A stretch of DNA of 64,000 nucleotides from Patescibacteria group bacterium (GCA_023484045.1 JAMDAA010000015.1:8659-72658), one strand, 5' to 3'. Shown: positions 5,182 to 48,549, numbered from the stretch's first letter. Program-made: numbers and translations. Notes: generated from the sequence alone by a model not told the origin.

Positions 5182-6984
5182 TTATTGGGGCAAACAATTA
5201 CAGCTTTTTTCTGATGTACAATCGGGGTTACGACACACGCTAGACCCTAAACCTTCTCCGGATACACAAGTTAAATTTCCATCACATTCATATCCGTTGC
5301 TGCCGCAAGTCTGGTTGCAGTAAGCAATTTTTGGTGTCGGAGTCGGAGCAGCTGTCGGTAAGGGCGTGGCAGTCGGCGTTGGTTGGGGAGTTGAAGTAGG
5401 CGCGGGACGACAATTCTGCTGACATTGGGTGAGCCCCGTGTTATTAAAAGGATAAGGAGGATTATTTTGTGTCGTAAGTTCACACGTATAAGATGATGTG
5501 TTGCATACATATCCTGTGTACGCAGGTCCGCCTCCACAGGAAAAAGGTGTTGACTGAGAAAAATTTGAAAAATTAGAATCATCACTGCAATTCATGCAGA
5601 GTGAATACGCGTATTGCGCGTAATACGATCTGTTGCCATCGATTTGCACCGTTATTTGGGGGTTGTTCGCCTGAATTTTACTATTATACATATCTGCAGT
5701 CGCCGCGCTTCTTCCGACCTGAATCCAATAATTACCCGCCGTTGATTGTCTGGGAAACGAAATAACCGCGTTATATTGGTTGTTTCCAAGACTATTACAT
5801 GCGTTTACAATAACATTTCCGCTCGGAGTGGGAATAAATACGCCGGTATTAAGAGTAAAATTAATATTTTGGGCGGGGACTGTAATAATTTGGGATTGTG
5901 TCGATGCAGTATTTTGTTGATTAACTTGCAAAACTCCTGTTATTTCGTACTGTTTTCCGACTGTTAAATTATTCCAGCTCCATGGTTGGCCATTGTGTGA
6001 AGGGTTATTAATACGGGTAATAACATTATAATTTTGGTTTCCGGGCAACCTCCATAACATAAGCAAGCTCGTATTTTCCTGTTCCGGTCCGTTAATAAAT
6101 ACTGTTCCAGTAATGTTTCCTGTTGTTTGTTGGGGAACAGGAGTAGGATTATTAGGAGAGGGAGATACAGGAGGATTAGCGGGCGGAACGGCTGTAGAAT
6201 TGAGGATAAAATCGATTTTACTATCTCCTCCGGCCGCAGTCACAGTCTCACTTGTCGCGAGTGTGATTACTCCCTGCATCAAAACCGCTTTGATCATATA
6301 ATCTTTTAACGGTACTGTTTTGTCCCATTTCCATCCGTTTTTTTGGCCGGCATTTGTTGTCGTTACGACTGTTTGAAAATCCTGATCGGTCGGTAATCTT
6401 GCCTGAATAAAAAGCGTGTTTTGTGGAGGGATATATCCGTTTATCGTAACAGTGCCCTTAATATAAGTTGTTTGTTCTATAACGACAGATTCAGGTAAAT
6501 CGTGCCAGGTCACGTGTAGATTTAGCTCTTGATTCGCGGCAGGCGCGGTAACGATAAGCGGTTCTGATGTTGTAACCAATTTTCCGTCGACTTGTAAACT
6601 TGCGATCATCTCATACGGCTGTCCAGAAACAGCGTCATTCCACGCCCATGGAGATTTTTCCGCCAAACCAGACGCGTATACAATAATATAATCTCCCGTA
6701 CTTTTATATTTGCGGTATTTTATTTGTACCTGCCCTCTGTCTCCCGGGTCGGGTTTTAATGCAGTGTAGTTAATGACTCCCGCGATCGTCGCGGCGCGGG
6801 ATTTACCGGTCAGGAAAAAAAGCAAAATAAATAAAACGATCAGTGCTCCGATTCCTGCGGCGATATATATAAACAATTTTGATTTTAGAAATGCAATTTT
6901 TTCTTGAGAGGGTGGATTTTCGATGCCTTGAGGAGGTAAACTTGGAGTACTTTGATTGTTTTGATTTTGAATTACCTGGCCCAT
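5182..6984 (-). CDS. Large surface protein: N-in TM anchor, three tandem ~100-aa repeats, Pro/Thr linker, Cys-rich C-terminal module
   Basis: Three repeats share W-x-W-[ND] ... G-[QK]-x-Y-[EM]-I ... L-Q-V (SPWAWND..QPYEMIASLQV / NGWKWDK..KDYMIKAVLMQ / QPWSWNN..KQYEITGVLQV). The C-terminus has more than 15 Cys (CNQTCGSNGYECDGNLTCVSGEG..CRNPDCTSEKSCNC). Confidence 0.6.
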   Translation of the reverse strand: MGQVIQNQNNQSTPSLPPQGIENPPSQEKIAFLKSKLFIYIAAGIGALIVLFILLFFLTGKSRAATIAGVINYTALKPDPGDRGQVQIKYRKYKSTGDYIIVYASGLAEKSPWAWNDAVSGQPYEMIASLQVDGKLVTTSEPLIVTAPAANQELNLHVTWHDLPESVVIEQTTYIKGTVTINGYIPPQNTLFIQARLPTDQDFQTVVTTTNAGQKNGWKWDKTVPLKDYMIKAVLMQGVITLATSETVTAAGGDSKIDFILNSTAVPPANPPVSPSPNNPTPVPQQTTGNITGTVFINGPEQENTSLLMLWRLPGNQNYNVITRINNPSHNGQPWSWNNLTVGKQYEITGVLQVNQQNTASTQSQIITVPAQNINFTLNTGVFIPTPSGNVIVNACNSLGNNQYNAVISFPRQSTAGNYWIQVGRSAATADMYNSKIQANNPQITVQIDGNRSYYAQYAYSLCMNCSDDSNFSNFSQSTPFSCGGGPAYTGYVCNTSSYTCELTTQNNPPYPFNNTGLTQCQQNCRPAPTSTPQPTPTATPLPTAAPTPTPKIAYCNQTCGSNGYECDGNLTCVSGEGLGSSVCRNPDCTSEKSCNCLPQ

Positions 6985-10304: not shown

Positions 10305-10416
10305 ATAATAATTCTACAAAACGGAAAAATAAAAAACAAGGAGTATTGTAATAAACCATAACATTCTCAGCTTGTGATTGACTTACGTCTTAAAATACTT
10401 CTTAATAAATATAGAC

Positions 10417-21936: not shown

Positions 21937-23293
21937 AAAGATTAATTCGATTTGTAACTCCTTCTGCTTTTACGGGAAAACTCTCCAATAACTTACAAGA
22001 TTTTAAAACCAAGTCTTTGTTAAAGATTTCGTCGATAACCTTTTCCTCAATACTTATTTGAGGATAAGATACTCCGTGAGAAATAATAATCGTCTTTTTT
22101 TGAACCGCTTTTTTTGTCAAAAATTCTTTGTCTAAAATTTTTTTGGTAAAAAAATATTCATGGGCATCTGTAACGCCTTGAAGAGGGGGGATTTTAGTAA
22201 CGTACAAAAGCGCAGGCGTTATATCATTGACACCGTATAAATAGTCGGGATTTTCCTTTCGAATCAATTGCACGATTTTTTCAAAATTTTCGACTTTTTG
22301 TAGATTTCTGTAACCGGAGAAATAAACAGAAATATTTATAAGAATAAAAATAGACACAATAAAAAGAATAATCGGTCTTTTAAAATTAAGCTTTTTTGTT
22401 AAAAAATTATAAAATTCGTAAAAAGAAAGACAAAGAAAAGGGACTAAAAAATTAAGATATAAATAATACACGTCCTGAAAACCGAAGAAAAAAATAATGG
22501 AAGAAATTGAGACTAACGCAAAAAAAGTACTTTTTCTAATATCCAGAAGATTAAATATCAATATCATAAAAAGTAGAAAATCCTTACTTATAAAAAACCA
22601 CGCAACCTCGTTTTTCATAATTCCGGAAGGTCGGGAAAGTGAAAATCCAAAAATATCTCCAAAAAATTCCTTCGGTGCAAAGATTAAAAATGGGAGAACG
22701 ACGATAAAACCAGTTACTATAAAAGCGATGGAAAAGTTAAATATTTTTTTGTAATTTTTCTGTAAAATTAGGTAAACGAAAAAAGAGAAAGCGATTGGAA
22801 TATAATATGCTTTGGTAAGAAATGATAAGGCCATAAATACTCCGGATAAAAAATATTTTTTCTCCTGAAGAAACAAAAAACCTAGCACTGCAAATAGTGA
22901 GGCGGTAAAAACTCCTGTTTGATGATCAGATGTAGACAGGACAATAAAAGAAAAAATGTAAAGCGCAGAGCTTGTTAATGAAAGAAGAATATCCTTTGTT
23001 TTTTTATAAGTTATAAAATAAATAAGAGTAGTTATAATCATTACTTCGATTGCGGATGTAATATAAAAAATTTCGATATTTTTATTAGTCAATAAATAAT
23101 ACAAAGAGGATATATAAGAGAAAAAGGGAAAATTTGAAAAGAAAATATCTCTGTAAAGCAATTTTCCCTGGAATATTTGATAAACATCATTAAAATAAAT
23201 ATTTGTGTCGGAAAGACGAACGCCAATGTTTAAAACTTTTATAACGAAAAAAAATCCTAAAAAGCCGATAAGAGGAACGAGGCCTTTCTTCAT
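21923..23293 (-). CDS. GT-C fold glycosyltransferase-like membrane protein (PMT_2/ArnT-like)
   Basis: Multi-TM. First loop 'YFNDVYQIFQGKLLYRDIF' is paralogous to 'YGDEGIYQVVGMGINNNRLLYRDIW' of 54212..55669. Soluble C-terminal domain. Confidence 0.55.
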   Translation of the reverse strand: MKKGLVPLIGFLGFFFVIKVLNIGVRLSDTNIYFNDVYQIFQGKLLYRDIFFSNFPFFSYISSLYYLLTNKNIEIFYITSAIEVMIITTLIYFITYKKTKDILLSLTSSALYIFSFIVLSTSDHQTGVFTASLFAVLGFLFLQEKKYFLSGVFMALSFLTKAYYIPIAFSFFVYLILQKNYKKIFNFSIAFIVTGFIVVLPFLIFAPKEFFGDIFGFSLSRPSGIMKNEVAWFFISKDFLLFMILIFNLLDIRKSTFFALVSISSIIFFFGFQDVYYLYLNFLVPFLCLSFYEFYNFLTKKLNFKRPIILFIVSIFILINISVYFSGYRNLQKVENFEKIVQLIRKENPDYLYGVNDITPALLYVTKIPPLQGVTDAHEYFFTKKILDKEFLTKKAVQKKTIIISHGVSYPQISIEEKVIDEIFNKDLVLKSCKLLESFPVKAEGVTNRINLFKCY

Positions 23294-24342
23294 TTTTTGA
23301 TTTTTAGAATTAACCAGCGAAGTTTATCTGCGATTTTATAAAATTGATAAGTAAAAGGTTTAATCACTAGGTCATAGCTTCCGACGAATTCGACGAGTCT
23401 TGGTCCGTATCCCTGTTTAAAACGGTGAAACCCAAACCATGGATCATTTGCGTCCGGGTTTGGTCCTAAAGATCCCCACATATCAAATTTTTTAAGTCCC
23501 ATTTTTTTACCAAATTTTATTACTTCCCACATCATTAAATTAGATGCCATAACTTCCCGGTTTTCACTCGACGACGCGCCGTATGGATAATATAAGGTAT
23601 CATGAAAAATAAAAACAATCCAGGCGGCGAGAATTTTTGAATTATATTTTGCCAAAAAAAGACGAGCAGTCAGTTTGTCTTCCGAAGGCTTGTCCTGAGT
23701 TTGTCGAAGAGTCTCCCACATTAACTTGTGATAATTTTCGTTATGGGCAAAAAATTTCTGCCTGCTTGTTGTTACTTTTGTGAGCCTTAGATATTCTTTA
23801 AACGCTTCTTCGGAATTATCTTCGATTATTTTGACATTATGTTTTTGAGCGACTCTAATGTTATAACGCGTTTTAGGATGCATATTTTTTAAAAGTTCAT
23901 CCTCTGATTTTGTTAAATCGAGCTGAAAAGTATATTTGGTAAATAAGGGATGAGCAGAAGGCCTAAGGCCTAAATTTACAATTTTTAATTTACTCGCCTC
24001 GCTTCGCGGGCGAAGCGGGCAATTTTTAATATTGTCGACGTTTGGCTCGAGTTGGATAAATATACAATTTTCCTCTTTCCCGATTCTTTTAAGTTCATCG
24101 AGAATTTCTTTATCCGGTAATTCTCCCTTTGGAAAATAGCCGATTGTCAGGTTTGTTTTTGGAGTCTTATGAACAGTCAGCTGGAAGCCCGATTTTAATT
24201 TATTTTTTTCATAAAATCCTTTTCTTATTACTTTAAGACCTGTTTTTTCCCGAAATTTTCCCCATTCAAAAGACTGAAGGGGATGGGTCACGATTTTATT
24301 AAATTCTTTTTTTTCTTTTTCGGTTATATTTATTATTTTCAT
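23290..24342 (-). CDS. FemAB-family peptidoglycan interpeptide-bridge peptidyltransferase-like protein
   Basis: 'THPLQSFEWGKFREKTG' matches the FemX/FemAB N-terminal 'FLQS.EWGE.K' motif. About 350 aa, typical for the family. Confidence 0.7.
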   Translation of the reverse strand: MKIINITEKEKKEFNKIVTHPLQSFEWGKFREKTGLKVIRKGFYEKNKLKSGFQLTVHKTPKTNLTIGYFPKGELPDKEILDELKRIGKEENCIFIQLEPNVDNIKNCPLRPRSEASKLKIVNLGLRPSAHPLFTKYTFQLDLTKSEDELLKNMHPKTRYNIRVAQKHNVKIIEDNSEEAFKEYLRLTKVTTSRQKFFAHNENYHKLMWETLRQTQDKPSEDKLTARLFLAKYNSKILAAWIVFIFHDTLYYPYGASSSENREVMASNLMMWEVIKFGKKMGLKKFDMWGSLGPNPDANDPWFGFHRFKQGYGPRLVEFVGSYDLVIKPFTYQFYKIADKLRWLILKIKK

Positions 24343-42235: not shown

Positions 42236-44014
42236 ATGGAACAAAATATCAGAAATTTTGCGATCGTGGCGCATATCGATCACGGTAAATCAACTCTAGC
42301 AGACAGGTTTTTGGAGATCACAAAAACTGTCTCTAAAGAAAAAATAATAAATCAATTTTTAGACCAAAATCCGATAAGCAGAGAACGCGGAATCACGATA
42401 AAGCTCGCGCCGGTTCGGATGAACTATGAATATAATGGCGTTAATTATATCCTAAATCTGATCGACACTCCCGGTCATGTTGATTTCTCTTACGAGGTGT
42501 CGCGAACCCTCGCGTGTTGTGAGGGCGTAATTCTATTGGTCGACGCAACGCAGGGGATTCAGGCTCAGACCGTTGCCCATTTCAATGCGGCAAAAAAACA
42601 AAATCTCGTTATAATCCCGGTTATAAATAAAATAGACATGCCAAACGCCCAAAGCAAAATCGTGGCAAAGGCGATGTGCAATATTTTTGGATTTAATGAA
42701 GAAGAGATTTTATATATTTCTGCAAAAACAGGAGAAAACACAGGCATTGTTTTAAAAAAAGTCGTTGAAAAAATTCCTGCACCAACGGGTAACAAAAATT
42801 TATCGCTTCGGGCGCTTGTTTTTGATGCGGTTTACGACGAACACAGGGGGGTTATCGCTTTTGTCCGGATCGTTGACGGGAATATAAAACATAGAGAAAA
42901 AATAAAACTTATTCAGGAAGAAACTTTAACCCAAGGGACGGAGGTTGGTTATTTCTCTCCTTTTCTCTCTCCGTCAGCCGAACTCAAAACAGGAGAGATA
43001 GGATATATAATAACAGGCGTAAAAGACATTCATGAATGTCGGGTCGGGGATACGATTACGAATTCAGAATTCCCCAGCCTCGCCAAGCGAAGCGGGGCGG
43101 GCAAAATTCAGAATTCAAAATTTGAAAAAGTAGAACCGTTGCCAGGTTACGAACCACCTAAACCCATGGTTTTCTTCGGTGTTTATCCTAAAAATCCCGA
43201 TGACTTTGTTCGTCTTAAAGAAGGATTGTCAAGACTTACTCTCAAAGATGCCTCACTCACTTTTTCCGAAGATTACTCATCTTTTTTAGGAAGCGGATTC
43301 AGAGTCGGTTTTTTAGGACTGCTGCATGCAGAGATTATTAAAGAAAGGCTGAAAAGGGAAGAAAAAGTCGAGCCGCTTTTAACTATCCCGCAAGTTTTGT
43401 ATAAGAAAAATCCCGATGGCTCGATGCTTGAGCCATATATTAGTTTATTGATTTATTCTCCGGTCGATTTTATCGGAAATATTATGTCTCTCTGCCAAAG
43501 AAGAAAAGGTAAGCTTATTAACACTTTATACCATGATACGTACGCGGTTTTGGAGTATGAACTACCGTATAGTATGTTTATAAGAGGGTTGTCATCGGAA
43601 TTAAAATCTGCATCTTCGGGATTTGCGAGTGTCGATTATGAGTTTATCGGTTTTAGAAGCGCAAATTTAATAAATTTAGAGATTATAATCAATGATCATC
43701 CGATCGATGTTTTATCGGAATATGTTTATAAAGATGAGGTTATTTATAAGGCCCGGGAAAAAACAGAAAAATTAAAAGAATTATTACCAAGACAACAGTT
43801 TAGACAAATTATCCAAGGTGTTATTGATGGAAAAATTATTGCGAGAGAAGAAATTCCGCCGTTCAGAAAAGATGTTGTCGCAAAACTTTCCGGAGGAGAC
43901 AGAACAAGAAAAGATAAACTCCTAAAAAAACAAAAGAAAGGAAAGAGAAGGTTGGAAAATTATTCAAAAGTTAACTTACCACAAGAAGCCCTGCTTTCTT
44001 TTTTGGAGAAATAG
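42236..44014 (+). CDS. lepA: Elongation factor 4 (LepA)
   Basis: 'FAIVAHIDHGKSTLADR', 'NLIDTPGHVDFSYEVSR', 'NKIDMP'. LepA-specific C-terminal domain. Confidence 0.95.
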   Translation: MEQNIRNFAIVAHIDHGKSTLADRFLEITKTVSKEKIINQFLDQNPISRERGITIKLAPVRMNYEYNGVNYILNLIDTPGHVDFSYEVSRTLACCEGVILLVDATQGIQAQTVAHFNAAKKQNLVIIPVINKIDMPNAQSKIVAKAMCNIFGFNEEEILYISAKTGENTGIVLKKVVEKIPAPTGNKNLSLRALVFDAVYDEHRGVIAFVRIVDGNIKHREKIKLIQEETLTQGTEVGYFSPFLSPSAELKTGEIGYIITGVKDIHECRVGDTITNSEFPSLAKRSGAGKIQNSKFEKVEPLPGYEPPKPMVFFGVYPKNPDDFVRLKEGLSRLTLKDASLTFSEDYSSFLGSGFRVGFLGLLHAEIIKERLKREEKVEPLLTIPQVLYKKNPDGSMLEPYISLLIYSPVDFIGNIMSLCQRRKGKLINTLYHDTYAVLEYELPYSMFIRGLSSELKSASSGFASVDYEFIGFRSANLINLEIIINDHPIDVLSEYVYKDEVIYKAREKTEKLKELLPRQQFRQIIQGVIDGKIIAREEIPPFRKDVVAKLSGGDRTRKDKLLKKQKKGKRRLENYSKVNLPQEALLSFLEK

Positions 44015-45295: not shown

Positions 45296-45553
45296 ATGTT
45301 TATAGATAATAAAAAGTTTTACGGTTCAACCACCGTTGGAGAGAAGGGTCAGGTAGTCCTCCCAGCCGATTTAAGGCGAGATCTCAAAGTTGAGGCAGGT
45401 GATAAATTGGCTGTTTTGGTTTTGAAAAAGTCAGGTTTTTCGGGTATCGTCATGATTCAGACTGGACTTCTCACTGTTATTCTCGAGAAGTTTTTCGGCG
45501 GGAAGTTGGCAGAATTTATTAAAGATAAGAAATCGACAGAAAAAGTTAAATAA
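45296..45553 (+). CDS. AbrB/MazE/SpoVT-type small DNA-binding protein (paralog of 13655..13909)
   Basis: 'TTVGEKGQVVLPADLRRDLKVEAGDKLAV' shares '..G[EQ].GQ[VM]VLP....R....[IV].AGDKLAV' with the arsM-linked paralog. Confidence 0.6.
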   Translation: MFIDNKKFYGSTTVGEKGQVVLPADLRRDLKVEAGDKLAVLVLKKSGFSGIVMIQTGLLTVILEKFFGGKLAEFIKDKKSTEKVK

Positions 45554-45559
45554 ATACCT

Positions 45560-46606
45560 ATGATTAAAAGGTTTTTTATCAGGAGAAATATTTTGATTGC
45601 CTTGGCATTTCTAGCAATTCTTTTTATTGGTTTTCGGGTGTATCCATCTTTTTCGAGCGCAGCCCGGGAGGAAACGATCGAAGTAAAAAGAGATACTATT
45701 ATGCAGAGAGTAACTGCTTCCGGAGAAATCAAATCCGAAGACGAAGTCGAGCTAAAATTTCCAGTGAGTGGGAAATTAGTTTATCTCGCAGTTGAAAAAA
45801 ATGAGCCGGTTAAAAAAGGAAGTTATATCGCCTCTTTAGACAAAGAAAAACTAGAAGCAAGCTTACGACAAGCCTGGCAAGATTTTACCGCTGCCAAAGC
45901 CGAATCCGAAAAAGTTTACGACGAACTTAAAAGAAAAGTAGACGAATCTTTTGACGAAAAAATAAGAAGGACAGCCGTAGATGCAAAACAGAATAAAGCC
46001 TATGACTCGATTAAAAAAGCAGAACAAGATTTAAAAGACGCCGATTTATACTCGCCGATTACAGGAGTTGTCACCAAAGTTTATGTTCAAGCGGGAACAG
46101 GAATTACCAATACCACTTCCATTGTCACGATCGCAAATCCGAATAACATGGTTTTTTTAGCAAGGGTAGGCGAATCGGATATTGGCGATGTTTCGATTGG
46201 TCAAGAAGCTTCGGTTGCCCTCGACGCTTTTGAAGGGAAAACGTTTAAAGGGCATGTTTCCGAAATCGACTATGCAGCAACAGTTAACGGCGGCAAAAGC
46301 TATCTTGTCAAAATTGTTTTAGAAGACCTTACTAAAGTAAAACTCGATATGAGCGGAGACGCAGAAATAATAACGGTTTCTCGTCCCGATGCCTTAATTA
46401 TTCCGCGAAGCGCAGTCCAAGAAAAAAACGGCCCCACTTCGCCAGGGCTTCGCGGGGCAAGCAAAAAATACGTCGAGATTTTGGAAGGAAAAAACACCAG
46501 ACAAAAGGAAATAACAACCGGCATAAAAGGTACCGGCGGAGTTGTCGAGATTCTTTCGGGACTTGATGTTTTTGAGAAAGTAATAGTTCCAAAACCTGCA
46601 AAATAG
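45560..46606 (+). CDS. Efflux periplasmic adaptor (HlyD/MacA family)
   Basis: N-terminal TM, biotinyl/lipoyl-like hairpins ('SGEIKSEDEVELKFPVSGKL', 'DLYSPITGVVTKVYVQAG'), long coiled coil. Confidence 0.75.
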   Translation: MIKRFFIRRNILIALAFLAILFIGFRVYPSFSSAAREETIEVKRDTIMQRVTASGEIKSEDEVELKFPVSGKLVYLAVEKNEPVKKGSYIASLDKEKLEASLRQAWQDFTAAKAESEKVYDELKRKVDESFDEKIRRTAVDAKQNKAYDSIKKAEQDLKDADLYSPITGVVTKVYVQAGTGITNTTSIVTIANPNNMVFLARVGESDIGDVSIGQEASVALDAFEGKTFKGHVSEIDYAATVNGGKSYLVKIVLEDLTKVKLDMSGDAEIITVSRPDALIIPRSAVQEKNGPTSPGLRGASKKYVEILEGKNTRQKEITTGIKGTGGVVEILSGLDVFEKVIVPKPAK

Positions 46607-46607
46607 C

Positions 46608-47837
46608 ATGGCAAGAAACATAAAGATAGCCGCATTTTTAGCATTTAAATCGATTGTTAAAGGCAACAAAGCAACAACAGCGCTTATAATTTTTATTTTG
46701 TCTTTGGCCTTTGTTAATTTAGTTTTTATCGCAGGGATTCTAAACGGTGTTCTCGAAGGGATTAATAAGCAGGTCGTAACTAACCTTGTTTCAAATATTG
46801 TTATCGAGCCCCAAGAAGAGCCGACAAAAAAAGACTTCATTATTCACGCAAGGGACATCATGGATCAAGTTGAAAAGATTCCGGGAGTTACAGCCGTTAC
46901 CAGTCGTTATAAATTGGCCGGGACGTTGGCTTTCGACAAGGAAAAAAACGGAAAATTCAAGTTTAGGTCAGGAGAAATAATCGGAGTTGATCCGGAAAAC
47001 GAAAAGAACATCTCGAATATTGCTTCGAAAATAATTAGCGGAGAGTATCTAGAAGGTTTAGGTAATGGCGAAATTCTTTTGGGATCGTCCTTAGCCGGAG
47101 GATACGGAGATTCCGAAGATCTTATCGACTTAGGAGGAGTTAGAGTTGGAGATAAAGTTCAGGTTACTTTCTCAAACCAAACGGTCAAAGAGTATAAAGT
47201 GAAAGGTATTTTTAGAGTTCAATTCGGTTTTGTTGATAGATTAGCTTTTATTACTACCAAAGAAGCAGAATCGATACTCGGTGTTCACGATAATGCGTCT
47301 CAAATCCTCGTAAAAATTAAAGATACAGGTAGCGAAGACGGCTATGTTGACCAAATTAAAACTTTTTTTCCCAATTTAAGAGTTGATAAATGGAATAATT
47401 TTGTCGGGGCATTGGGTAATGTTTCTAAAAGCTTTGACATGATTACACTTATCATTAGCGCCATTGGGTTGGCGGTGGCAGCGATCACGATCTTTATCTT
47501 AATTTATGTTGAGGTGGTTCATAAAAGGCGGCAGATCGGAATTTTAAAGGCGATCGGTATTAAACAAAATATTATTATCTACTCTTATATTTTTCAGGCG
47601 CTTTTTTATGTCAGTTTAGGGGTTGTTATCGGAACACTTCTAACGCTTTATGTATTGGTGCCATTCTTTTCTGGTCACCCACTAAGACTTCCGGTCGGCG
47701 AGACGGGTTTGGCGTTAAATAAATTAGGGCTTATCTATAATGCGCTCAGCTTATTTTTAGCGGCTTTGATCGCCGGGTTTATTCCGTCGTGGCGAGGAGC
47801 GAAGGAAAACATTCTTAAAGCTATTTGGGGAGCATGA
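46608..47837 (+). CDS. ABC transporter permease, MacB/FtsX-like
   Basis: N-terminal TM, large periplasmic domain, FtsX-like 3-TM C-terminal bundle ('RRQIGILKAIGIK'). Confidence 0.8.
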   Translation: MARNIKIAAFLAFKSIVKGNKATTALIIFILSLAFVNLVFIAGILNGVLEGINKQVVTNLVSNIVIEPQEEPTKKDFIIHARDIMDQVEKIPGVTAVTSRYKLAGTLAFDKEKNGKFKFRSGEIIGVDPENEKNISNIASKIISGEYLEGLGNGEILLGSSLAGGYGDSEDLIDLGGVRVGDKVQVTFSNQTVKEYKVKGIFRVQFGFVDRLAFITTKEAESILGVHDNASQILVKIKDTGSEDGYVDQIKTFFPNLRVDKWNNFVGALGNVSKSFDMITLIISAIGLAVAAITIFILIYVEVVHKRRQIGILKAIGIKQNIIIYSYIFQALFYVSLGVVIGTLLTLYVLVPFFSGHPLRLPVGETGLALNKLGLIYNALSLFLAALIAGFIPSWRGAKENILKAIWGA

Positions 47838-47838
47838 T

Positions 47839-48549
47839 ATGGAAAAATCAAATCTCAAAACTCAAAGATCAAAAATAAACAATATAATTAAAGTAGAAAA
47901 TCTTAAAAAAATTTATCCCGGTAGAGTTCCAACACCAGCGTTAAAAGGTGTCTCTTTTGACGTGAAAGCGGGAGAATTTATCGCGATTATGGGGCGAAGT
48001 GGCTCTGGTAAATCAACCCTTCTTCACCAACTGGGGTTAATCGATACACCAACCGAAGGGCAAATTCTTATTAATGACACTGATGTTTTAAAACTTTCTG
48101 ATTCAGGAAAAACTTTATATCGTCTGCAAAACTTAGGCTATGTATTTCAGGAATACGCGTTAATCGCAGAACTAACAGCTTTAGAAAATGTGTATTTACC
48201 GGCATTTGCTTTGGGTGGAAACAATGATGGCTATAAAAAACGGGCCCAAGAAATGTTGGAAATTGTCGGCTTAGGCGAGCGGGTAGACCATTATCCCAAT
48301 GAACTCTCGGGCGGTGAACAACAAAGAGTCGCTATTGCCAGAGCGCTTATTAACAAACCCAAAATACTTTTTGCCGACGAGCCCTGTGCAAATCTTGACA
48401 GCGTTTCCTCAAAAGTCGTTTTAGAGTTATTCAAAAAACTGAATAAGGAGTTAGGACAAACTATTGTCATGGTCACACACGAACCGGAAGATGAGAAGTT
48501 TGTCGACAGAGTAATCTGGATGAGAGATGGGCTTTCGGAGTCCCCGTAA
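47839..48549 (+). CDS. ABC transporter ATP-binding protein (MacB/LolD type)
   Basis: Walker A 'GRSGSGKSTLL', signature 'LSGGEQQRVAIARAL', Walker B 'ILFADEP'. Confidence 0.9.
   Translation: MEKSNLKTQRSKINNIIKVENLKKIYPGRVPTPALKGVSFDVKAGEFIAIMGRSGSGKSTLLHQLGLIDTPTEGQILINDTDVLKLSDSGKTLYRLQNLGYVFQEYALIAELTALENVYLPAFALGGNNDGYKKRAQEMLEIVGLGERVDHYPNELSGGEQQRVAIARALINKPKILFADEPCANLDSVSSKVVLELFKKLNKELGQTIVMVTHEPEDEKFVDRVIWMRDGLSESP

Follow-up and report, generated by a model that had tools for sequence, protein, structure and literature searches.

A 30-nt GC-rich insertion in a Patescibacteria adaptor gene, probably a decayed copy of a short palindromic element family

A periplasmic adaptor gene in a Patescibacteria metagenome-assembled genome (MAG) carries a discrete insertion of about 30 nt that has sharp ends when compared with the empty site of its homologues. 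This GC-rich, in-frame block, which we call c3 (CCCACTTCGCCAGGGCTTCGCGGGGCAAGC; positions 46433..46462), is probably a decayed copy from a family of short palindromic elements, carried as a passenger. That it derives from some short palindromic mobile element is very likely. The analysis is based on a 64-kb stretch of DNA (hereafter the window; 35.7% G+C) taken from a 76.7-kb contig of a genome with 36% G+C, whose nearest LepA and FemX homologues are mostly labelled Levybacteria.

The host gene (45560..46606, plus strand) encodes a 348-aa HlyD/RND-type periplasmic adaptor, or membrane fusion protein, with the Pfam domains HlyD_D23 and HlyD_3, and its homologues carry the annotation efflux RND adaptor. 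It lies in a conserved operon, downstream of a small MazE/AbrB-like gene (45296..45553) and upstream of genes for an FtsX-type permease (46608-47837) and an ABC ATPase (47839-48549), all on the plus strand. The adaptor together with the permease and the ATPase (46608..48549) constitutes a MacAB-like efflux unit, and the order MazE-like gene, adaptor, FtsX permease, ABC ATPase is identical in two other loci (L244 and L245).

The initial annotation described a GC-rich core within this gene at 46418-46472, and the core is present as quoted, encoding QEKNGPTSPGLRGASKKY in the plus-strand ORF. The inserted block within it, at 75% G+C (24/32 G+C counted over the core), encodes residues P292-S301, PTSPGLRGAS. 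All 18 aligned adaptor homologues (38-61% identity) are without the insert, reading QEKNG/KKYVE where the window protein reads QEKNG-PTSPGLRGAS-KKYVE. The empty site is also seen at the DNA level in the two syntenic operons, as CAA GAG AAA AAT GGC/AAG AAA TAT, compared with CAA GAA AAA AAC GGC (CCC ACT TCG CCA GGG CTT CGC GGG GCA AGC) AAA AAA TAC in the window, where the inserted codons are in parentheses and the position of the junction is ambiguous by 1-3 nt. Thus the segment is derived rather than ancestral, being missing in every one of these homologues and in the DNA of both operons.

Two further explanations, that c3 is an artefact of assembly or sequencing or that it is ancestral and has disappeared from every other lineage, are scarcely credible. 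An artefact would be in keeping with the confinement of true family copies to metagenome-derived assemblies and with the break of an independent Logan contig within the related copy in lepA. However, an identical c3 insert is present in the independent Logan assembly of SRR10252151, c3 is in frame within a contiguous conserved gene, and the copies show graded divergence. Loss of an ancestral segment would have to be assumed for 18 of 18 homologues, which is unparsimonious.

The insert falls within a beta-turn of the adaptor's C-terminal domain, where it separates a Gly codon from a Lys codon. An AlphaFold2 model of the adaptor (mean pLDDT 85) places residues 290-301 in coil between strands 287-289 and 302-309, with a pLDDT of ~55 for the block 291-300 versus ~87 on either side. 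From this model, c3 appears to occupy a tolerated, low-confidence surface loop.

The A-rich segments on either side of the core had been described as imperfect direct repeats. The repeats do exist (18 nt, 78% identity), but they were not made by the insertion. The left flank (46418..46432, plus strand) consists of the ancestral A-rich codons Q-E-K-N-G, kept in homologues in both protein and DNA, and the right flank (46463..46472, plus strand) of the ancestral codons K-K-Y-(V), likewise kept in homologues. Because the repeats are simply the conserved E-K-N-G and K-K-Y-V codons that border the homologues' empty site, c3 has no target-site duplication.

G+C richness by itself is weak evidence for c3, as the window contains three 30-nt islands of at least 75% G+C, compared with 1.1 expected and a maximum of 6 in first-order Markov simulations. 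Two facts lift c3 above chance, namely the precise ten-codon insertion and the 10-mers shared among c3 and two sister cores, one in a femAB-like gene (c1) and one in lepA (c2). The grouping of c3 with these cores, proposed in the initial annotation, is borne out, and both sister cores are missing or different in a relative at ~79% nucleotide identity (GCA_023485715.1). Within the 64 kb, c3 has 10-mers in common with the femAB core, which has a further one in common with the lepA core; outside the cores, the only occurrence is a single reverse-strand 10-mer 20 nt upstream of c3. The CTTCGC/GCGAAG motif itself is not enriched in the window (CTTCGC, 25 occurrences versus 25.8 expected; GCGAAGC, 8 versus 5.7). 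The 11-mer GCTTCGCGGGG is unique in the window, and its single one-mismatch partner lies in the femAB core. A search for a source of the cores inside the window revealed no tRNA or other RNA origin and no other similar sequence in the 64 kb; Rfam at the gathering threshold gave no match to the cores, the sole hit in the window being one tRNA-Asn.

The femAB core, c1 (ACTCGCCTCGCTTCGCGGGCGAAGCGGGC; 23992..24020, plus strand), is a canonical member of the family. It is an exact copy of the 27-mer CTCGCCTCGCTTCGCGGGCGAAGCGGG, scores 49.4 bits with the covariance model and lies antisense to its host gene (23290..24342, minus strand). A perfect 11-nt direct repeat, CAATTTTTAAT, flanks it (left, 23979..23989; right, 24020-24030; plus strand), with 41 nt from start to start. 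The lepA core, c2 (43073..43102, minus strand), is a diverged copy in a variable loop of lepA (42236..44014, plus strand). It aligns with the consensus over its full length, with 24/28 identities and two 1-nt insertions (p < 0.0005), and scores 29.7 bits with a covariance model that it helped to build. Flanking c2 is a perfect 12-nt direct repeat, AATTCAGAATTC (left, 43061..43072; right, 43105-43116; plus strand), followed by an extra 7-nt partial duplication. In the relative GCA_023485715.1, lepA is without c2 (a 54-nt gap), and the femAB gene has 21 nt fewer where c1 would lie, with a different short hairpin in its place, CCGGCTCTGCCGG. Repair of the frame by simple excision was considered for both cores and rejected, given repeat spacings of 41 and 44 nt, neither of which is a multiple of three; the lepA frame is restored only on removal of 51 nt (the 44 nt plus the 7-nt partial duplication).

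A fourth copy (c4) is located in the same lepA loop of the Levybacteria genome GCA_030650175.1, in the orientation opposite to that of c2, and the orthologous codons are perfectly duplicated on either side of it over 12 nt (AAAAGTCAAAAT). Its opposite orientation and its own duplication indicate an insertion independent of c2.

Several observations concern the host loops and other small inserts in the same genomes. The LepA loop after GDTIT (43061-43122 in the window; L004 10835-10906) contains the element in two genomes, with ~12-nt duplications (NSEF and KSQN), and the LepA homologues P0125, P0126 and P0128 likewise have additional residues in this loop. Logan contig SRR10252151_19624 breaks exactly within c2 (L003 position 1), and these hairpins appear to interrupt assemblies. 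At the c1 site, the femAB-like gene of GCA_023485715.1 (L001 ~10310-10330) has a short GC hairpin, GATCCGGCTCTGCCGGAG, that encodes DPALPE, and other FemX homologues carry neither c1 nor this hairpin; the FemX loop seems to have been struck repeatedly by different hairpins. The FemX of GCA_030650175.1 has a heptamer block, (AACTCTC)n, encoding NSQLSTLNSQL and present twice in one gene (L005 10325-10357 and 10724-10756), and seems to represent another type of small insert, richer in A+T. Elsewhere in the window, a GC-rich palindrome of the form TCCCGCG...CGCGGGA (6774-6803; 83% G+C) encodes KSRAATIAGV within a minus-strand ORF (5182..6984), just past a membrane helix predicted in the encoded 600-aa protein, which is without a Pfam match; the palindrome may be a hairpin insert of another family.

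The family consensus, (G/A)CTCGCCTCGCTTCGCGGGCGAAGCGGG(C/T), is a REP-like, GC-rich palindrome of roughly 29-30 nt, in which a 4-nt unpaired tag is followed by a bulged 10-bp hairpin, and the canonical copy folds better than shuffled sequences (z -3.1 to -3.7). The element is present on at least 120 metagenome contigs, at least 86 of which have the identical 27-mer. Contig G+C ranges from 29 to 57% for all but nine of the at least 120 contigs listed; those nine, at 60-74%, have mostly non-canonical variants and may be chance matches. A first scan of genome contigs with GCGGGCGAAGCGGGCWWWW was swamped by GC-rich chance matches, and 6 of the 118 matches listed are true copies. These six come from MAGs labelled Patescibacteria, Komeilibacteria, Sedimentisphaerales, Pirellulales, Bacteroidetes and Gammaproteobacteria, or at least five labelled phyla among the matches listed. 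No true copy was found in 50,697 phage records, 72,556 plasmid records or IMG/VR, and across the databases scanned true copies are known only from metagenome assemblies and MAGs. The family is apparently undescribed, as the literature yielded no account of it whether searched for the sequence, the encoded peptides or the topic.

The ends of the element are sharp and its flanks random, with partial conservation beyond the 27-mer only at positions -1 (G/A) and +27 (C/T); the tag is (G/A)CTC in 105 copies. Among the copies listed, 55 of 120 (46%) are inside long ORFs, compared with 65% for random positions. Intragenic copies occur in both orientations and use six of six frames, and the 27-mer is without a stop in any of the six. 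Host genes include those for ParB, SSB, Fpg, an Xer-type recombinase, ScpB, MreB, GatB and ribosomal proteins S9 and S11; the copy in parB (L105) would be a 30-nt insert, judging from the typical length of ParB. Copy number is low, with ~4 additional copies in 735 kb beyond the ascertained ones. The copies do not form CRISPR arrays: they are solitary, and the only two loci with more than one copy have irregular spacing.

Direct repeats of at least 8 nt flank 9 of 110 copies versus 6 of 411 controls, reaching up to 12 nt at variable offsets. Flanking duplications of 10-12 nt are present in three metagenome copies, and most copies are without any. At orthologous filled sites the element is identical, including positions that were free in the search pattern, while the flanks are only 75-90% identical, an identity that is biased by the pattern search itself. 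Nested copies, with the element inside relatives of itself, also occur; they, the many sites, the sharp ends with random flanks and the range of labelled MAGs are all features typical of mobile DNA. In L177, L167, L181, L204, L228, L165 and L198, the canonical 27-mer sits inside its own variant (gctcgcctcgctga, then the 27-mer, then agctttggcgaagcgggc), and L145, L200 and L225 have 9-nt tandem expansions of the GCGAAGCGG arm. A general preference for the apex of other palindromes was rejected (3% versus 1.3%), the nested cases being few and without enrichment.

Against this background, c3 is the most diverged of the three window cores. Using a covariance model built without c3, we obtained a full-length match on the minus strand (46432-46462), from which the orientation of c3 is assigned; the orientation is uncertain because the sequence is nearly palindromic. 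The score of 9.7 bits is at noise level (whole-window E ~6). Only c1 and c2 score higher in the window, which puts c3 in third place, just ahead of two unrelated hits at 9.6 bits. The ends of the match fall within 1 nt of the insert ends defined by the homologues. The best local alignment of c3 to the consensus has 14/16 identities (p ~0.005 from composition-matched shuffles). Both termini match those of the family (GCTTGCCCCGC versus GCTCGCCTCGC and GGCGAAGTGGGG versus GGCGAAGCGGGC), and the centre departs from it (GAAGCCCTG versus TTCGCGG). Hairpin folding of c3 is no better than that of shuffled sequences (z -0.4 and -1.6). When applied to 78.6 kb of related genomes, the covariance model found c4 only, and no second c3-like copy was found in ~1.7 Mb of loci scanned; an HMM made from pattern-selected copies alone was too narrow to score c2 or c3. 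The location of c3 near c1 and c2, two certain family members that lie 22 kb and 3 kb away, speaks for membership, which we regard as probable.

A weak model score and a centre unlike that of the consensus could also indicate that c3 is the hairpin of a different GC-rich palindromic family, still derived from a mobile element. Unrelated hairpins do exist in the same material, including CCGGCTCTGCCGG at the relative's femAB site, GAGGTCAGACCTC, GGCGAGGCTCAACCTCGCC and CCTGCCGGCAGG. However, a different family would have to share both termini with this one and the same size (30 nt), to be matched by the model over exactly the insert and to lie within the same 23 kb as two certain members. We consider this explanation unlikely and favor a decayed copy of the present family.

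The one shared 10-mer that lies outside the cores, CCGCGAAGCG (46403..46412, plus strand), is identical to an element arm on the reverse strand and is complementary to 46447-46455. It is derived in the window lineage, which has PRSA where the homologues have PRVA and read AGA GTx GCT. Its occurrence near c3 could be due to chance (roughly 1 in 100) or to local conversion. The same motif would be the template if c3 had arisen locally, through slippage or through strand-switch copying of CCGCGAAGCG (quasi-palindrome correction), in which case the likeness of c3 to the family would be a matter of composition. Over 19 nt the insert shows 79% complementarity to 46403-46421, including 9 bp that pair perfectly, and the derived state of the motif also suits such an event. 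On the other hand, a strand switch would copy the intervening A-run as well and accounts for only 9-10 of the 30 nt, the remainder of c3 matches the family termini, and the likeness to the consensus exceeds that of the composition-matched shuffles. Local origin is therefore improbable in our assessment, and the decayed family copy remains the preferred reading. Pairing of c3 with the upstream CCGCGAAGC into a larger hairpin was also considered and discarded, because 46396-46470 folds no better than shuffled sequences.

Finally, the hairpin could be a selected functional element, for instance an antisense terminator, a structure in RNA or DNA through which the operon is regulated, or an extra loop of use to the adaptor. 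A terminator-like site is called on the minus strand, with its stem at 46448-46431 followed by T7, and the constancy of orthologous family copies next to flanks that have diverged to 75-90% identity could be taken as a sign of selection. However, no homologue has the loop, which is disordered in the AlphaFold2 model, and c3 folds no better than shuffled sequences. Moreover, all neighboring genes are on the plus strand, so a minus-strand terminator would have nothing to terminate, and the minus-strand T-run is the complement of ancestral Lys/Asn codons, which weighs against the terminator reading. A selected function for c3 is very improbable.

The comparison with homologues shows that a 30-nt block was added at the beta-turn. 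Its length is divisible by three and the sequence of the family is free of stops in six frames, so the gene stays open and gains a ten-residue surface loop. We infer that the insert is a neutral passenger, with no functional part in the pump, drifting from a master sequence. As for how the element moves, we tentatively propose copying from a single-stranded DNA hairpin by an enzyme acting in trans, most plausibly a RAYT/IS200-type Y1 (HUH) transposase. Products of such an enzyme would carry no target duplication, and a single-strand Y1 mechanism is in line with the duplication-free state of most copies. A Y1 enzyme would not be expected to leave the duplications of 10-13 nt found at c1, c2, c4 and a few metagenome copies; flanking duplications of this length in AT-rich targets, as in the femAB and lepA copies, might come from another mode of insertion or from a later event.

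A scan of ~60 window ORFs identified no gene for a transposase, an integrase or a reverse transcriptase, and the remaining block (27.9-37.4 kb) is syntenic to a relative annotated without genes of these three kinds. The neighborhoods of 120 copies, examined out to 2.5 kb, show no enrichment of a partner gene. Three hits to a neighboring PolX (DNA_pol_B_thumb plus PHP) probably stem from L142, L150 and L209, which probably represent one shared site; in these loci near-identical stretches of 22-27 nt directly flank the element, and they appear orthologous. A phmmer search with an IS608 TnpA query gave nothing useful. Three RAYT-like Y1 genes, with the motifs CLMxNHFHLL and YIHLNP, are present in 735 kb of family loci. 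Each is flanked by its own different hairpin and none by the 27-mer element: GAGGTCAGACCTC at L223 (1960-2760), GGCGAGGCTCAACCTCGCC at L228 (4555-5352) and GTCCACCTCGAAGGTGGAC at L145 (9500-10305). In L223 and L228, in-frame copies of the gene's own hairpin are found inside the transposase gene. REP/RAYT-type systems with intragenic copies thus exist in these genomes, but these genes do not connect any such system with the 27-mer element.

A bolder view, which is possible but on the doubtful side, is that c3 is one footprint of an undescribed mobile hairpin of 30 nt that is promiscuous and could be the smallest mobile DNA with a wide distribution. A length of 3n and freedom from stops would make it compatible with coding sequence, it would be letter-identical across distant lineages, and its spread would leave a duplication of either 0 or ~12 nt.

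Among known systems, REPs are dispersed imperfect palindromes of 20-40 nt with a short unpaired end tag and a 4-5-nt loop, and their superfamilies are defined by a GTAG or CGTC tag, with the variants TGTC and CCTC (PMC3733652). Some sit in frame within known genes, among them genes for replication and repair, as do the Rickettsia elements RPE-4 and RPE-6, and no dedicated transposase is known for CGTC-class REPs (Di Nocera et al. 2013, PMC3733652). The present element resembles REPs in its combination of tag and hairpin, in falling within the 20-40-nt range and in its in-frame intragenic copies (SSB, Fpg, Xer-type recombinase, ScpB, ParB). It differs in its tag, which is (G)CTC rather than GTAG or CGTC, and in its stem, which has 10 bp, is bulged and is without A-T pairs at the first positions. 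In addition, its copy number per genome appears low, about half of its copies are intragenic, and no RAYT gene flanked by the element was found in the window or in the 735 kb of family loci. REPINs are described as vertically inherited and lineage-specific; by that description they differ from the element, the same 27-mer of which occurs across genomes of very different G+C and labelled phyla. The Rickettsia palindromic element RPE-1, attributed to Ogata and colleagues in 2000, is reportedly ~100-150 nt long and restricted to Rickettsia. By these descriptions it is set apart from the element, which is 30 nt long and taxonomically widespread.

The closest behavioral analogue is provided by the GC clusters of yeast mitochondria, which, together with the byp elements of Magnusiomyces, are short GC-rich palindromes that invade an AT-rich genome (PMC8811140). 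GC clusters include in-frame insertions in var1, have terminal repeats that have been read as target duplications, and undergo rapid decay and merging (PMC8811140). They differ from the present element in being organellar and eukaryotic, in having 2-3-nt AG or TAG terminal repeats and in that some are bypassed by the ribosome. In contrast to byp and T4 gene 60-type systems, the adaptor ORF is continuous through the 30-nt insert, which brings in neither a stop nor a matched pair of take-off and landing codons, and ribosomal bypassing is therefore not needed. The element is also similar to MITEs in being non-autonomous, in its inverted-repeat arms and sharp ends, and in the 11-12-nt duplications at c1, c2 and c4. 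However, it measures 30 nt compared with the usual 50-500 nt of MITEs, and it has no target-site duplication of fixed length: c3 has none, and where duplications are present they are imprecise, with extra partial copies.

For the adaptor gene, c3 matters little, amounting to ten extra residues in a loop. The interest lies in the family rather than in the c3 copy, because an identical 27-mer occurs across 29-57% G+C and several labelled phyla. About half of the copies are in frame within housekeeping genes such as lepA, femX, parB, SSB and ribosomal protein genes, which clashes with the view that REPs are extragenic, present in high copy number, inherited vertically and lineage-specific. Confirmation of the family would provide a tractable case for studying the movement of very short DNA within a genome and from one genome to another, would account for some of the unusual GC-rich peptides inserted into proteins of uncultivated bacteria, and would serve as a marker of recent insertion in comparisons of closely related MAGs. 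Such inserts inflate loops in Patescibacteria proteins and so bear on both annotation and structure prediction.
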